A DNA stretch of 64,000 nucleotides from an uncultured Verrucomicrobia subdivision 3 bacterium (GCA_903944085.1 CAJAQO010000286.1:11009-75008), one strand, 5' to 3'. Numbered from the stretch's first letter, positions 19,753 to 25,282 are shown. Notes: generated by a model from the letters alone, not told the origin. Program-made: numbers and translations.

Positions 19753-20133
19753 TCAAGTGGCTAATGGCACGAGGTTCAGCAATTCGCCAATGCGTTTTTC
19801 CAGGCGGGCCAAGTCAAGCGGTTTGGTGAAAAAATCCTCGGCGTGCATCGTGGCGGTGCGCTTGGTGATGTCGCCCGTGAGCGCGCTCATGAAGATGACC
19901 GGAATTTTTTTGGTGCCCGGCTGGCGGCGCAAAATTTCGCAGACGGACAGGCCATCGAGATCGGGCAGCAAAATATCAAGCAGGATGAGATTCGGCTTTT
20001 GCGTCCGCGCCTGGCTCAACGCATGAACGCCGTCGTTGGCCACGATCAGCTCATAGCCATGCCCCGCGAGTTTGTATTGCAACAGCTCGATGAAATCATT
20101 CTCGTCATCCACGATCAAAATACGCGGCACCAT
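19753..20133 (-). CDS. CheY-like single-domain response regulator
   Basis: MVPRILIVDDENDFIELL ... LILLDILLPDLDGLSVCEILR ... IPVIFMSA ... KP. Confidence 0.75.
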   Translation of the reverse strand: MVPRILIVDDENDFIELLQYKLAGHGYELIVANDGVHALSQARTQKPNLILLDILLPDLDGLSVCEILRRQPGTKKIPVIFMSALTGDITKRTATMHAEDFFTKPLDLARLEKRIGELLNLVPLAT

Positions 20134-20251: not shown

Positions 20252-23200
20252 TCAAAATTGCAACTCGCCATCGCTGTGAACCCGATTGCCCGCCGGGTCC
20301 ACGATGGTCGCCGTGACGAAGATCACTACCTCCTTGCCGTTGGCTTTTGTCTTTCGTTTGACCACCACGCCGTTGACATAATTTTCCACCGGCAAACCGC
20401 CAAGCACGGCCGTCTGGTCGTCCCACAAATTCAAGGTTGTCGTCATTTGCCGGACGGCGAAACGGGGCAATACTCTCGGCAGATCAATTTTTTCACCGGC
20501 GCGATTGTAAGCCGCCGTGGTGTTGGTGGACTTGTCGTAGCCCAGAAACTCCGTCAAAGAAGGGATGAGCGCCAGATTGATGGTATAGCCATCCGCCAAA
20601 ACATAAGGCACCACGTCCAAAATCGGGCCGGTTTCAACCGTCGTGGTTTGGGGGACGATGGCATTGGAAACCACCAGCCCGTTTTGATTGGTGTAAATTT
20701 CTTCAAAGGCCGTGTTGGTGACGACCGTAATCATGGTGGTCGCCCGCATTTGCGTTTGCCGACCGCTGAGCGTGGTCACTTCCGGCTCGGCCAAAACTTC
20801 AATGCCTGATTGGGCTTGCAGCGCGTGCCTGACCGCAGTCGCATTCGTGGTGGTGAGAATTCCCGTGAACTGCGCCGCCGAATTTGACAACACTCCAAAT
20901 TTCTGCAAGCCGAGCAAAGTTTCCCTCGGCACTTTGTAAAACCGCGCCTTGATGTGGATTTGCGGCGGAACCTGGTTGAGCACTTGGATGGAGCGCTCAA
21001 TCGTGTCTAAATCGTCCTCCGTCGCTTTGACAAAAAGGTAGCCGAGGCGGTCGTTGAAAAAAACCGCCTTGCCCGGCGGTTCCTGAAGATTGACGCCCAA
21101 ATTGGCGAAGAACATCCGGGCCAGCGTGCTCGGCGTCGTGGTGTTAGTTTTCGTGGTGGCGTATGGCAACCCGTCCGGACCGACGCCGATGTCTATGCTT
21201 CGGTTGCTGACGTTTTCCAAACCGAGGTAAAAAGCGTGGGGATCCACGCGGAAGGTGCGCATGAAAAGCTGTGGAGGTTCTTCGGAACTTTTGGCTGAAA
21301 ATATGACGTCGGAATCCCGAATACTATACTTGATCGGGTGTTCCGCCACCAACACGATGGCATCCAGCACATCTGCGAGCCGCACGTCCGTCAAGTTCGG
21401 TATCTTGATTGTCATCGCGCCGACATCCTCCGACGCGGCGGTGTTTGTCCCGCCAGAATTGATGGCGAAATCAATTCCCTTCCGCTCCGGATCACGCCAT
21501 TTGGATTCTCCATTAAGCTGCGCCAGCACTTCGCGCAACGGCTTGCCGGCCTCACCGGTGGAAAATTTCTCCAGGCGGATTCGGTCCAGCTTGGCGACGA
21601 TATTCGTGTGCGTCGCGGCATAATAAACAGGCGGCGAATCAATTCGATTGACGCCCCGGCCACTGATCGTGGTGACTTCGGGTTCAGCCAACGAGCCAGC
21701 GCCGCCACGCTGTTGCAAAGCCCGCAGCGCGGCTTGAAAATTTGTGCCGGACAAAATCCCCGTGCCGTTGGTCGGATTCTGCGGCAAAGCAGGCTGGGGC
21801 GGCGTTCCCGGCGGAATTTCGGGTAGCACGCGAAGGGCTTTTTCAATTAAATCCAAATCCACAGCCGTGGCTTTCACGAAAAAAACTCCGCGCGTGGCGT
21901 TGTAAAAAAGTGTCTGGCCCTTGGGCGATTCCATGTTTATGCCGAGATTTTTGATAAAACTTCCCATCACTTCCGACGCCGAGCCGGCTGGCGGCGTGCC
22001 CATTGCCTGCATGGCGGTGTAGAGAACATTGGTGTCCAATTTGAACGTGCGATTGAAAAGCTGCACCGGCCCCGGCACTTTGGCGGAAAACACGACGGCA
22101 AAATCCTGAACGGAATACTTGATGGGATGATCCGCAGCCAACACAACGGCATCGAGCAAGTCGGCAAAGCACATGTTGGTCAGGCTGGGAATTTTGATGA
22201 GACAGGAACCGACATCCACCGGTTCATTGGTGGTTGCCGCTGTTTCGGCGGTCGGCCCCGCAACCGGCTGCCCCGAACGGTCCGGATTATTGTTGATCAG
22301 GAAGTTGATGCCTTTGCGTTCGGGATCACGCAATCTGGATTGTCCGGCCAACTGCCTGAGCACTTCGGTCAGCGGCAAGCCGCGGTCGCTTGTGGAGAAA
22401 TTTTCCAGCCGGATCGTTTCGAGCTGGCGGATAATTTGCTGTCGGCCGGCGCTGGTTTGAACAAGCTTTGGACCTTGCCGGTTGGTTTGAATCAATCCCA
22501 AATAATAATTTGCCGTTGCGTTTTGTGGGTCCGCAGCCAGGGCTGCTTCCAATTTCATTTGCGCCGCATCCAGTTTGCCCATTTCAAAAAGCAGTTTGCC
22601 ATCCTGCACCAATTGCTTTTCCTGGCTTGGCGCGCTCATCGCGTTGGTATTTCCCAACGGCACCAGCCGTTGCTCGAAATGTTTCGCCGGCGAATTGGTG
22701 ACCAACTCCACGCCGATGACCGCGACCAGATTGCTCGCCGTGAGTCCATCCAGGCGAATCACCACGCCGCCTAAATTTTCCGCCGAAGCGCTGGCGCGAA
22801 ATTGATTGGTCAAAAGCTTGTTTCCAGCGCCATCAACCACTTGGCCGTGAACCGCCATAGCGATCCGTTCGCCGTTCACAACTGGCGTGCAATCAAGTTC
22901 GATGCTGTTGGTGCCATTGCCCACATACATTTGCGCCGGCGTGCTGCTCGAAGTTAGGACACGTGGCGAAATCAGCGGACTCAGACCGTAAATCGCCACC
23001 GTGTTTTTCAGCGTTCGATACAGCCAGGGTGAAGCTGACCACCAAGAATCCTCGTTGGCGCCACTGTGGTTAAATTGCAAATTGGCCACCAGGTTTTTGA
23101 AATCGTCGGTCCGCATTTGGTAGATTTGCGCTGACACGACGACGGCGGGGCAATTTGTTTGTGGCACCGAACCAGATGGCGAATTAGTGGCCGCCGAGGC

Positions 23201-24280
23201 TGGCGCGGCAAGTGGAGTTTTTTCCGTCGGTGCCGGCCCTTCGCCCATCGGCAATGCCACCGCGCTGAAAGCAAAAATTCCGCAGAGCGACGCGAAGGTC
23301 AGCCCGGCTCTGCGCGGCGCGCGAAAATCCACCAACCGCTCGATGCGCTGCCGCAGCGCGCTCCGCGATTCCATGATGCCAACCAGGCCGAGACTCAGCA
23401 GCGGTCGGCGAAAGGCCAGCTTGGCGACTTCGAGCAGCGTCGGCGCATAGCTGTCCGCTTCGTCGCGCAGGGCCAGCATTACCGCATCGTCCACTGCTTC
23501 CTCGCGCACGCGGCGGATGCGCGCGTTTGCGACCCACAGCAGCGGATGCCACCAGTAAACAATTTGCAGCAACGCCTGCGCGCAGTTCAACCAGACATCC
23601 TTGCGCCGGAGATGAAACAATTCGTGCAGCAGCACGGCGCGCAATTGTCCGGCGGAAAGTCGTTCCGCCAGCGCGCGCGGCAGCAAAATCACCGGACGAA
23701 ACAGGCCGCACACGGCGGGCGACATGCGGGCGTCCGTAATCTTCAAACGCGCCGAGGAACGCCATCCGGCGGATCGTCGCGCCTCGTGGAGCGGTTCAAA
23801 AATATTTTCGGAGACGATTGCCTGGCGAACCATTTGGCGCACCTGCCACCAGCGAAACGCCAGCCACAACAGCAGTCCGGCGCTCACGGACTCGGAAGCC
23901 AGCAAAGTCCAGCCAGCCCCATCCAACTTTGGCGCGGGCGGCTCAGGCGGGACGAAAGATTGCGCCGGCAAATCCAACTGGGGCGCGACGTTGTCGTAAG
24001 TAACGACGTAATTTTTTATCGCGGGCGCTTTCATCGGCGGTTTGGCGGGAAAGAGCCACCAGGCCGCGCCGGTGGGCAGGGCAAGCGCAGGCGGCAATAG
24101 CAATTTCACCAGCACCGCCAGCCACAGCGCGTAGCGGACAGCCGCGCGGATTTTTCGCGCCAGCAGAAAATCGAGCGCGAGGACGAACCCGATGAGCAGG
24201 CTGGATTGCCAAAGCATTGGCCACGCGAACTGCAAAAATTGTCCGCCCAATTGATTCACGGTTTCAATCAAAGCATTCAT
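20252..24280 (-). CDS. BlaR1-type M56 sensor-metalloprotease fused to a large periplasmic region with duplicated STN-like modules and secretin-type domains
   Basis: N-terminal TM helices plus HELFHLRRKD (HExxH, aa 219-223, nt 23612-23626). Secretin-type blocks appear in three places. The first is VVVSAQIYQMRTDDF ... ISPRVLTSSSTPAQMYVG (aa about 379-455). The second is LAEPEVTTISGRG (aa 864-876). The third is a full C-terminal domain: QIHIKARFYKV ... IEVLAEPEVTTLSGRQTQM ... GPILDVVPYVLADGYTINL ... LWDDQTAVLGGL ... VIFVTATIV. Confidence 0.8.
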   Translation of the reverse strand: MNALIETVNQLGGQFLQFAWPMLWQSSLLIGFVLALDFLLARKIRAAVRYALWLAVLVKLLLPPALALPTGAAWWLFPAKPPMKAPAIKNYVVTYDNVAPQLDLPAQSFVPPEPPAPKLDGAGWTLLASESVSAGLLLWLAFRWWQVRQMVRQAIVSENIFEPLHEARRSAGWRSSARLKITDARMSPAVCGLFRPVILLPRALAERLSAGQLRAVLLHELFHLRRKDVWLNCAQALLQIVYWWHPLLWVANARIRRVREEAVDDAVMLALRDEADSYAPTLLEVAKLAFRRPLLSLGLVGIMESRSALRQRIERLVDFRAPRRAGLTFASLCGIFAFSAVALPMGEGPAPTEKTPLAAPASAATNSPSGSVPQTNCPAVVVSAQIYQMRTDDFKNLVANLQFNHSGANEDSWWSASPWLYRTLKNTVAIYGLSPLISPRVLTSSSTPAQMYVGNGTNSIELDCTPVVNGERIAMAVHGQVVDGAGNKLLTNQFRASASAENLGGVVIRLDGLTASNLVAVIGVELVTNSPAKHFEQRLVPLGNTNAMSAPSQEKQLVQDGKLLFEMGKLDAAQMKLEAALAADPQNATANYYLGLIQTNRQGPKLVQTSAGRQQIIRQLETIRLENFSTSDRGLPLTEVLRQLAGQSRLRDPERKGINFLINNNPDRSGQPVAGPTAETAATTNEPVDVGSCLIKIPSLTNMCFADLLDAVVLAADHPIKYSVQDFAVVFSAKVPGPVQLFNRTFKLDTNVLYTAMQAMGTPPAGSASEVMGSFIKNLGINMESPKGQTLFYNATRGVFFVKATAVDLDLIEKALRVLPEIPPGTPPQPALPQNPTNGTGILSGTNFQAALRALQQRGGAGSLAEPEVTTISGRGVNRIDSPPVYYAATHTNIVAKLDRIRLEKFSTGEAGKPLREVLAQLNGESKWRDPERKGIDFAINSGGTNTAASEDVGAMTIKIPNLTDVRLADVLDAIVLVAEHPIKYSIRDSDVIFSAKSSEEPPQLFMRTFRVDPHAFYLGLENVSNRSIDIGVGPDGLPYATTKTNTTTPSTLARMFFANLGVNLQEPPGKAVFFNDRLGYLFVKATEDDLDTIERSIQVLNQVPPQIHIKARFYKVPRETLLGLQKFGVLSNSAAQFTGILTTTNATAVRHALQAQSGIEVLAEPEVTTLSGRQTQMRATTMITVVTNTAFEEIYTNQNGLVVSNAIVPQTTTVETGPILDVVPYVLADGYTINLALIPSLTEFLGYDKSTNTTAAYNRAGEKIDLPRVLPRFAVRQMTTTLNLWDDQTAVLGGLPVENYVNGVVVKRKTKANGKEVVIFVTATIVDPAGNRVHSDGELQF

Positions 24281-24292
24281 ACGCGTCCCAGG

Positions 24293-24682
24293 TTATTTTT
24301 TTGCTGCCTTCTTTCGCGCCTTGATCATCGCCTCCAACTCTGCCAGTTCCTTCGTGTTCAAATCCTTGCTGTCGAGCAGGCATTGCACCATCGGCGTGAG
24401 CGCGCCATTGAAAGCGTGCTTGAGCGCGTAAAATAATTCGCCGCTCTGCGCCTGCGCGCGCGTGACGGCCGACTGGTAAATCGTCAACTTGCCTTCTTTC
24501 TTCGCCTTGAGCATGCCTTTGGCGACCATGCGGTCCATCAAGGTGCGGACGGTCGAGTAATGCCAGCCGGTCGGCTTGAGCAGTTTTTCCTGGATGGCGG
24601 GCGCGGTGCAGGGTTCGGTTTCCCAAACGGCCTTGATGACGGACCATTCGGACTCGGTGAGTTCCACCGTGGGCTTGGACAT
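24293..24682 (-). CDS. blaI: BlaI/MecI/CopY family transcriptional repressor
   Basis: LTESEWSVIKAVWETEPCTAPAIQEKLLKPTGWHYSTVRTLMDRMVAKGMLKAKKEGKLTIYQ is the winged-helix Penicillinase_R pattern. It lies immediately upstream of, and co-oriented with, the M56 gene. Confidence 0.85.
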   Translation of the reverse strand: MSKPTVELTESEWSVIKAVWETEPCTAPAIQEKLLKPTGWHYSTVRTLMDRMVAKGMLKAKKEGKLTIYQSAVTRAQAQSGELFYALKHAFNGALTPMVQCLLDSKDLNTKELAELEAMIKARKKAAKK

Positions 24683-24694
24683 GTGCCTAGATTC

Positions 24695-24708
24695 TCTACA
24701 AATGTAGA
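24695..24708. promoter_or_regulatory. putative BlaI operator 1 (TCTACA-AA-TGTAGA)
   Basis: Perfect 6+2+6 dyad containing the TACA/TGTA half-sites typical of BlaI/MecI operators, 13 nt upstream of the blaI ATG. Confidence 0.6.
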
Positions 24709-24725
24709 TAATGTCAAGCGGAATA

Positions 24726-24739
24726 TTTACAAATGTAGA
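24726..24739. promoter_or_regulatory. putative BlaI operator 2 (TTTACA-AA-TGTAGA)
   Basis: A second copy of the same dyad, 31 bp centre-to-centre from operator 1 (about 3 helical turns). Confidence 0.55.
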
Positions 24740-24805
24740 TATTGCGGCAAATAAAAAGAGCGAAAGGAAATCCTCTCGCTCTTCGGAAAAAACTGTTTTG
24801 TGAAT

Positions 24806-25282
24806 CTACTTCAGCTTTGCCAGTGTTGCCTTGACGGCTTCAAAATTCGGCAAATCCTTCGGCGTCGGCGTCTGTTCGCTGTATTGCACCACGCCGCTTT
24901 TATCAATGACAAACGCCGCGCGTGCGGACGTGTCGCCCACGCCCGCGAGCATCGGGAACACCACGTCGTAAGCCTTGGTCACGGTTTTGTTCAAATCGCT
25001 GGCGAGCGTGATGCCGATTTTTTCCTGCTTGGCCCACGCGGCCTGCGCAAACGGGCTGTCCACGCTGACGGCGATGACCTCCGCGCCGAGGCTGGCATAC
25101 GCGTCGAGGCCGGCGGTGAGGCTGCACATTTCCGCCGTGCAAACGCCGGTGAACGCGAGCGGAAAGAACAGCAGCACGGTGTTTTTCTTGCCGAAATTGT
25201 TGCTTAACTTGACTTCCACATCCACGGGAGATTTGGATTTGAGGGTGAAATCAGGAGCTTTGGAGCCGACGGGAATTGCCAT
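24806..25282 (-). CDS. peroxiredoxin (AhpC/TSA family, AhpE-like)
   Basis: GSKAPDFTL ... VLLFFPLAFTGVCTAEMC ... VIAVSVDSPFAQAAWA. Confidence 0.85.
   Translation of the reverse strand: MAIPVGSKAPDFTLKSKSPVDVEVKLSNNFGKKNTVLLFFPLAFTGVCTAEMCSLTAGLDAYASLGAEVIAVSVDSPFAQAAWAKQEKIGITLASDLNKTVTKAYDVVFPMLAGVGDTSARAAFVIDKSGVVQYSEQTPTPKDLPNFEAVKATLAKLK

Follow-up and report, generated by a model that had tools for sequence, protein, structure and literature searches.

The textbook example of a proteolytic switch by which Gram-positive bacteria sense antibiotics is BlaI/BlaR1, and that of a giant outer-membrane pore is the secretin. In the BlaR1-BlaI and MecR1-MecI systems of Staphylococcus aureus and Bacillus licheniformis, a four-helix M56 protease with an HExxH site and a downstream Glu/Asp motif is encoded next to a BlaI-family repressor, and TACA/TGTA-type dyads over the promoter of the repressor-sensor operon place that operon under autoregulation. 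Here we describe a locus that is alike in all of these features, its four helices being predicted from hydropathy and its autoregulation from the operators, in which a sensor of about 1000 amino acids (aa) of secretin type takes the place of the class D beta-lactamase-like penicillin-binding domain. The locus lies in a stretch of 64,000 nucleotides (nt), which we call the window (CAJAQO010000286.1:11009-75008), from the metagenome-assembled genome (MAG) of an uncultured, soil-type Verrucomicrobia subdivision 3 bacterium (GCA_903944085.1; 5.79 Mb in 335 contigs, 96% complete, 4.67% contamination). A sequence-only reading of the window had placed a fusion of a BlaR1-type M56 sensor protease with secretin-type domains at positions 20252-24280 and had given its length as 1342 aa. 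Position and length held, and the strand needed correction: the plus-strand reading of this interval was ruled out by its many stops, and the fusion gene is a single open reading frame (ORF) without internal stop on the minus strand, where all features given below with window coordinates also lie. The frame is intact over 1342 codons and shows no sign of the frameshift splitting that the sequence-only reading had itself raised as a reason for doubt. Since homologues begin with the same MNxxIExxNQxGG and an identical protein is present in public collections, the start codon is correct. The M56-secretin design does exist, is widespread within this bacterial order and has gone unstudied; a full-text literature search found no paper on the architecture. 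The best explanation of the locus is that its sensing part is an inner-membrane-tethered paralogue of a pilus secretin, not a penicillin-binding domain.

The protease and its secretin-type periplasmic part

The N-terminal part of the fusion protein (residues 1-346, 23243-24280) is a BlaR1-type M56 zinc protease according to Pfam, NCBIfam, hydropathy and alignment columns, and the earlier assignment of this region to the BlaR1/MecR1 type was well founded. Pfam Peptidase_M56 (PF05569) matched residues 22-315 with 132 bits against a cut-off of 31, covering profile positions 6-295 of 296, and NCBIfam blaR1_generic (NF000326) matched with an E-value of 4e-31 and 108 bits, far under its equivalog cut-off of 400. 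The HELFH zinc site occupies residues 219-223 (nt 23612-23626) and the downstream acidic ligand motif REEAVDD residues 259-265. In a family alignment of 91 sequences the H, E, H and EEAVDD columns were near-invariant, with at least 90% conservation. Hydrophobic segments at residues ~20-40, 48-70 and 326-346 rose above the hydropathy threshold, a further one at ~123-145 (helix 3) stayed just below it, and positive charges follow helices 1 and 3. From hydropathy and charge distribution we infer the topology of BlaR1, in which the protease would be cytoplasmic and residues 347-1342 extracytoplasmic. The zinc protease is thereby shown as one that should be catalytically intact, predicted on the cytoplasmic side of four membrane helices. 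A phmmer search of the M56 part against solved structures gave no match at E<=0.001, and the family profile, when run against solved structures, matched secretins and not BlaR1; the M56 assignment therefore rests on Pfam and NCBIfam. Profile searches with Pfam and NCBIfam found no transpeptidase, beta-lactamase or penicillin-binding domain in the fusion protein, in agreement with the proposal that the penicillin-binding sensor had been replaced.

Membrane helix 4 is followed by a Pro/Ala/Ser-rich linker (residues 347-378, 23147-23242, pLDDT 51-69). The part of about 1000 aa beyond this helix had been described as built of secretin-type domains, and both profiles and folds agreed. Folds were assigned with AlphaFold2 models, built on the 91-sequence family alignment and matched against the PDB with Foldseek. 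The model of residues 347-620 (pLDDT 85.4) contained the disordered linker, a beta domain and four TPR-like helices. The beta domain (residues 379-527, 22700-23146, pLDDT ~95) is membrane-proximal and has a truncated secretin-like fold, for which the phage f1 pIV secretin was the best PDB match (E 2.7e-5). The four helices form TPR-like hairpins (residues 553-619, 22424-22624), and Pfam TPR_11 matched residues 561-598 just under its cut-off (25.3 bits, E 1.2e-5), so that the TPR-like segment noticed in the sequence is real. Self-BLAST revealed a tandem duplication of residues 607-875 and 885-1174 (42% identity, E 1e-64). Repeat copy 1 (residues 607-875, 21656-22462) consists of an STN-like N0 domain, an N1 domain, a Pro-rich linker and, at its end, a remnant of a secretin-domain start (LAEPEVTTISGR, residues 864-875). 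Repeat copy 2 (residues 885-1106, 20963-21628), supported by the model and Foldseek as well as by self-BLAST, consists of an STN-like N0 domain at 889-996 and an N1 domain at 1005-1102. The N0-type domains of both modules have the order beta-alpha-beta-beta-alpha-beta-beta, and each is followed by an N1-type domain; the N0-N1 crystal structures of XcpQ, EscC and InvG appeared as secondary Foldseek matches further down the list. Of the two STN-like modules claimed earlier, what stood was their N0-type fold, seen in model and Foldseek, and what did not stand was detection by the STN profile (PF07660), which gave no Pfam match to the fusion protein at E<=0.1.

The C-terminal secretin domain (residues 1107-1342, 20255-20962) was identified by Pfam, by fold and by profile matches to PDB secretins. 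Pfam Secretin (PF00263) matched residues 1153-1297 with 44.4 bits against a cut-off of 27.5, at profile positions 1-123 of 169. The model of residues 880-1342 (pLDDT 87.7) comprised an N0-type domain, an N1-type domain and a secretin domain with long beta-hairpins, and its top 29 PDB fold matches were all secretins (BfpB, PilQ, InvG, GspD and pIV; best E 4e-11). The family profile matched the PDB sequences of pIV (9e-15) and BfpB (1.4e-10). The domain keeps the gate and beta-lip regions and the DPAGNRVHSDGELQF tail, and the columns of the gate start, the beta-lip and the C-terminal tail (DPAGNRVHSD.EL) were at least 90% conserved in the 91 sequences. The three segments in which secretin signatures had been seen are thus real: the C-terminal domain by Foldseek, the remnant at 864-875 by self-BLAST and the beta domain at 379-527 by its fold match to pIV.

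A tblastn search of the fusion protein against its own 5.79-Mb assembly found one other locus, on contig C320, which matched residues 557-1342 piecewise at 45-74% identity. The locus comprises genes for a pilus-like protein of the Amuc_1100 family, an unassigned product and a secretin of the Amuc_1098 family; it is the type IV pilus-like cluster of Verrucomicrobia that has become known in Akkermansia. The identity over this span shows the periplasmic part to be what we read as a diverged paralogue of the genome's Amuc_1098-family type IV pilus secretin, from the TPR region to the C-terminal tail; beta-lip, gate and tail are nearly identical in the two. The beta domain at 379-527 is specific to the fusion family and has no counterpart in the pilus secretin, the tblastn matches starting at residue 557. 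NCBIfam Amuc_1098 (NF042912) matched the fusion protein in several stretches, of which 891-1122 was the best, with 147.6 bits against a cut-off of 750. Judged by its profile scores, the protein is a member of Pfam M56 and an equivalog of neither BlaR1 nor Amuc_1098. In a tree of secretin domains with 74 rows the fusion domains lay apart from the pilus secretin of their own genome, from which it follows that the paralogy is old and not upheld by gene conversion; the tree rejects co-evolution likewise. A match to the pilus secretin was present in 143 of the 151 genomes of the order.

The pilus secretin of this genome is itself unusual in being split into two ORFs (C320, locus L008, 3945-6912). 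The first, of 767 aa, stops in the middle of the secretin domain and scores 200.7 bits on NF042912; the second, of ~214 aa, has a signal peptide of its own (MNTHRANNIFKLAFSALLVWSGLGAIGKVHAQ), the beta-lip, the loop motif and the tail, and scores 121.4 bits. Further genomes of the order (G226, G232, G289 and G285) have ORFs of 230-270 aa that match only the second half of the split secretin, and because of this recurrence the split may be natural rather than an assembly error.

Searches for the fusion returned at least 1122 homologous proteins at E<=0.001, nearly all with both PF05569 and PF00263, from MAGs of Verrucomicrobiia/Limisphaerales. NCBI names these products "M56 family metallopeptidase", and JGI lists both domains. 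On this homology evidence the M56-secretin fusion is a large family and not a one-off. The fusion was found in none of 150 genomes spread over the phylum, and a close M56 homologue was present in about 28 of the 151 genomes of the order; ten of the order's M56 homologues were fetched, of which seven are secretin fusions and three have other C-terminal parts. All 41 species representatives with close relatives are MAGs labelled Verrucomicrobiia, Limisphaerales or subdivision 3, a few of them with evidently mislabelled bin names. The M56 homologues at loci L021, L027 and L029 (genomes G211, G178 and G214 of the same order) share 44-49% identity over residues 1-350, and their C-terminal parts have no BLAST similarity to the secretin region. 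Evidently, M56 modules within the order have become fused to periplasmic parts of several kinds. Two genomes assigned to the same genus, G226 (3.2 Mb) and G285 (2.3 Mb), are far smaller than the 5.79-Mb assembly, and an M56 match was absent from both. Two explanations offer themselves: a patchy presence of the fusion in this genus, or a bin or genus assignment that deserves a check.

The blaI promoter and its operators

The gene directly upstream, blaI (24293-24682), encodes a 129-aa winged-helix repressor of the BlaI/MecI/CopY family (Penicillinase_R, 100.6 bits) and ends 12 nt before the ATG of the fusion gene. Its promoter is bracketed by two dyads of the TACAnnTGTA type. Dyad 1 (TCTACATTTGTAAA, 24726-24739) lies upstream of the -35 hexamer TTGACA (24712-24717), which stands between the two dyads and whose position is conserved in relatives. 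Dyad 2 (TCTACATTTGTAGA, 24695-24708) overlaps the spacer and the -10 region, and the ATG of blaI follows it by 12 nt. An intrinsic terminator with a 13-bp stem and a T tract (24755-24784) ends the peroxiredoxin gene upstream and insulates the blaI promoter. Adjacent blaI and operator dyads had both been reported from the sequence, and both could be located here and are conserved across the family: blaI stands directly upstream of the fusion gene in all five further loci examined, and two dyads 30-31 bp apart bracket TTGAC(A) at 34 of the 41 species-representative loci. In most of the related loci (41 examined) the blaI start codon comes 6-8 nt after a GAGAAT-like box. This spacing leaves no room for a ribosome-binding site, for which reason the transcript of the operon is probably leaderless.

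The assembly contains one M56 gene and one BlaI gene. TACAWWTGTA occurs three times in the 5.79 Mb, twice at the blaI promoter. The sequence TACANNTGTA occurs six times genome-wide, and its four occurrences outside the blaI promoter are all single, three of them inside long ORFs. With one mismatch allowed, paired dyads were found only at the blaI promoter, apart from one weak pair on C23. Because the genome has this dyad pair at a single place and 34 of 41 related loci conserve it, BlaI has no detectable target beyond its own operon, as far as operator sequences can indicate.

No neighbour other than blaI is conserved beyond synteny. An AhpC/TSA peroxiredoxin gene (24806-25282) lies directly upstream of blaI, with the strong terminator in between, and three syntenic relatives likewise have one or two AhpC/TSA genes directly ahead of blaI. 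Downstream of the fusion gene by 118 nt is a gene for a receiver-only response regulator of 126 aa (19753-20133), followed by an aconitase gene. Three relatives share the synteny of this pair, and in two of them PIN or M50 genes on the opposite strand lie between it and the fusion gene. We considered the response regulator as a part of the system and rejected it, because opposite-strand genes intervene in some relatives and it is absent in others; it is probably unrelated to the fusion.

The missing loop motif and the candidate input

The C-terminal secretin domain had been called complete in the sequence-only reading, and this claim failed. We aligned the C-terminal regions of the fusion, ten relatives, the C320 secretin and three other secretins of the same genome. 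Between the strands VLGGL and VVIFVTATIV the fusion is 15 residues shorter than its paralogue. The segment it lacks reads KVPVMGDLPLFGRFF in the C320 paralogue and KVPLLGDIPLLGQLF in Vibrio cholerae GspD, and contains VPxLGDxPxxGxxF, the most conserved motif of the family. The site of the deletion (residues 1292-1321, VLGGLPVENYVNGVVVKRKTKANGKEVVIF; 20318-20407) was located in this alignment and in the alignment of the family profile to pIV, in which the motif of pIV stands as an insertion. The missing segment is also the reason why the Pfam Secretin match ends at profile position 123. The amphipathic helical loop has been described as the most conserved secretin sequence and tied to outer-membrane association (PMC6155069, PMC6532946, PMC8134430), and as essential for membrane insertion (PMC8134430). 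Going by the wording of these papers, not by a residue-numbered mapping, we equate the missing motif with this loop. Because the C-terminal domain lacks it, neither a complete secretin nor the envelope-spanning sensor that had been suggested is established for this member; the latter idea is nevertheless plausible. The N-terminus, moreover, is a four-helix membrane protein and has no secretin-type signal peptide, so that N0 and N1 are present but tethered. With both the loop and the signal peptide absent, the fusion protein is not a canonical secretin as judged from its sequence.

The motif is kept in 29 of 119 family members, lost in the other 90, and kept in all 11 pilus paralogues examined. 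The tree implies at least four, and most parsimoniously seven, changes of motif state, and loss of the motif thus appears as a recurrent trait of the family. Save for this loss, the conservation shows a secretin domain under strong purifying selection. Since gate, lip and tail are at least 90% conserved while the motif was repeatedly lost, the constraint is of the kind expected for a ring-forming secretin, and the putative element by which it would associate with the outer membrane on its own can be dispensed with. Either the ring stays out of the outer membrane, or tethering to the inner membrane makes the loop's proposed "concentrating" role redundant.

Tentatively, we read the locus as a BlaI/BlaR proteolytic switch that regulates itself and has the state of assembly or conformation of the tethered secretin paralogue as its input. 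BlaI would repress its own operon. The secretin fold is stable only as a ring, for which reason the secretin-like array would be multimeric. By analogy with S. aureus BlaR1, a shift in the assembly or conformation of this array would activate the protease, and the membrane-proximal beta domain would relay the signal together with the periplasmic loop that connects helices 2 and 3. The activated protease would then cleave BlaI, and more BlaI and more fusion protein would be made. Since neither a separate payload gene nor a BlaI target outside the operon could be detected, the fusion protein probably serves as effector in addition to sensing. Some points weigh against this reading. Cleavage of BlaI by the fusion protease is assumed from the behavior of the family. 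The solved BlaR1 of S. aureus is a dimer, which is hard to reconcile with secretins, whose rings have 12-15 subunits. Finally, the regulon search used the operon's own dyad sequence in a 96%-complete assembly, and weaker or different operators may exist.

An unlikely alternative is that the fusion forms a true conduit across the envelope from one polypeptide. In that case 12-15 copies would form a gated outer-membrane pore, the M56 ring would be chiefly an anchor or platform, and the BlaI circuit would mainly set the dosage. The geometry is compatible with an N-terminal inner-membrane anchor, since the N-terminus of a secretin naturally faces the inner membrane. The gate, the C-terminal tail and the beta-lip, which is the membrane-spanning part of a secretin (PMC6532946), are nearly invariant and very like those of the pilus secretin. 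About one quarter of the family members keep the loop motif. The proposed role of the loop is to concentrate monomers on the membrane surface (PMC6532946), and with four transmembrane helices present that role could become superfluous, so that the repeated loss would be explained. However, the motif that the member studied here lacks has been described as a signature found in every solved secretin and as essential to insertion into the membrane (PMC8134430, PMC6155069). The M56 catalytic residues and the BlaI operators are strictly conserved, and a mere anchor would not need them, nor were linked partner genes (ATPase, pilins, platform) found at the five further loci examined.

It is likewise doubtful that the fusion acts as a sentinel or decoy subunit. 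Such a tethered copy would co-assemble with, or dock under, the Amuc_1098-type pilus secretin or its assembly partners, and would report failed or ongoing assembly of the pilus machine to the cytoplasm. The identity of 45-74% to the genome's own pilus secretin speaks for this, and it includes the lip and an almost identical tail, DPAG(N/S)RVHSD(G/D)EL, which is a candidate common site for binding partners. The pilus secretin would also supply the loop motif that the fusion lacks, and it has a match in nearly all genomes of the order. Against it, the secretin domains of the two proteins do not cluster by genome, and the tree thus gave no sign of co-evolution or gene conversion. Nor did the initial 13 kb of contig C320, where the pilus cluster lies, contain an operator-like dyad, and the same-genus genomes have the pilus secretin without the fusion.

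Quite improbable, in our estimate, is a one-component signalling machine across the envelope, in which one ring of subunits would sit in both membranes, with the secretin pore in the outer and the M56 ring in the inner membrane. The outer pore would possibly be shared with the pilus secretin, and pore opening, occupancy or failed assembly would pass mechanically down the stack of N domains and lead to cleavage of the repressor. If such a machine were real, the repeated loss of the loop would be explained, because tethering to the inner membrane already concentrates the subunits. A conventional sensor of beta-lactams or cell-wall fragments, or a functionless decaying relic of a gene fusion, has almost no chance of being correct: the sole point in its favor is the BlaR1 family name together with the blaR1_generic match, but no profile search found a transpeptidase or penicillin-binding domain, that match lies far under its cut-off, and the intact frame, more than 1100 homologues and many invariant columns rule out a decaying relic.

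Comparison with known systems

A family of more than 1100 sequences thus joins a switch of the BlaI/BlaR1 type and a secretin in one polypeptide, with the protease, the repressor and the operators kept intact. For the question of how the cytoplasm of a diderm bacterium might learn the state of a machine in the outer membrane, the family is a tractable model. It also lets one see, as in a natural experiment, which elements of a secretin become dispensable once the subunit is tethered to a membrane. In surveys of resistomes, these genes should not be taken for sensors of beta-lactam resistance.

Apart from its secretin-type sensor, the locus differs from BlaR1 and MecR1 in its gene order, blaI then blaR, and in having no divergent payload such as blaZ or mecA. 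Its host has two membranes, and the NCBIfam score for a BlaR1 equivalog is 108 against 400. With the Amuc_1098-family secretin, of the type found in the Amuc_1098-1102 cluster of Akkermansia, the fusion shares the order of TPR, N0, N1 and secretin domains, the beta-lip, the C-terminal tail and, for the genome's own copy, 45-74% identity. In contrast to that secretin, it carries an M56 membrane protease in place of the signal peptide and an extra membrane-proximal beta domain. Its N0 and N1 domains are duplicated, VPxLGDxPxxGxxF is deleted, linkage to pilus genes is absent, and it reaches 147.6 bits where the cut-off for the family is 750.

The FecR/PupR-type anti-sigma factors of cell-surface signalling and the M56-TonB_C fusions of Bacteroidota are inner-membrane regulators with periplasmic domains from outer-membrane machines, STN/N0-like domains or the TonB C-terminal domain, and their signalling ends in regulated proteolysis and a change in transcription. 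The likeness of the fusion to these regulators is one of logic. Its output would be cleavage of a repressor by the M56 protease, whereas FecR/PupR signalling releases an ECF sigma factor, and in contrast to both groups, which carry a single docking domain, the fusion carries a whole secretin subunit.

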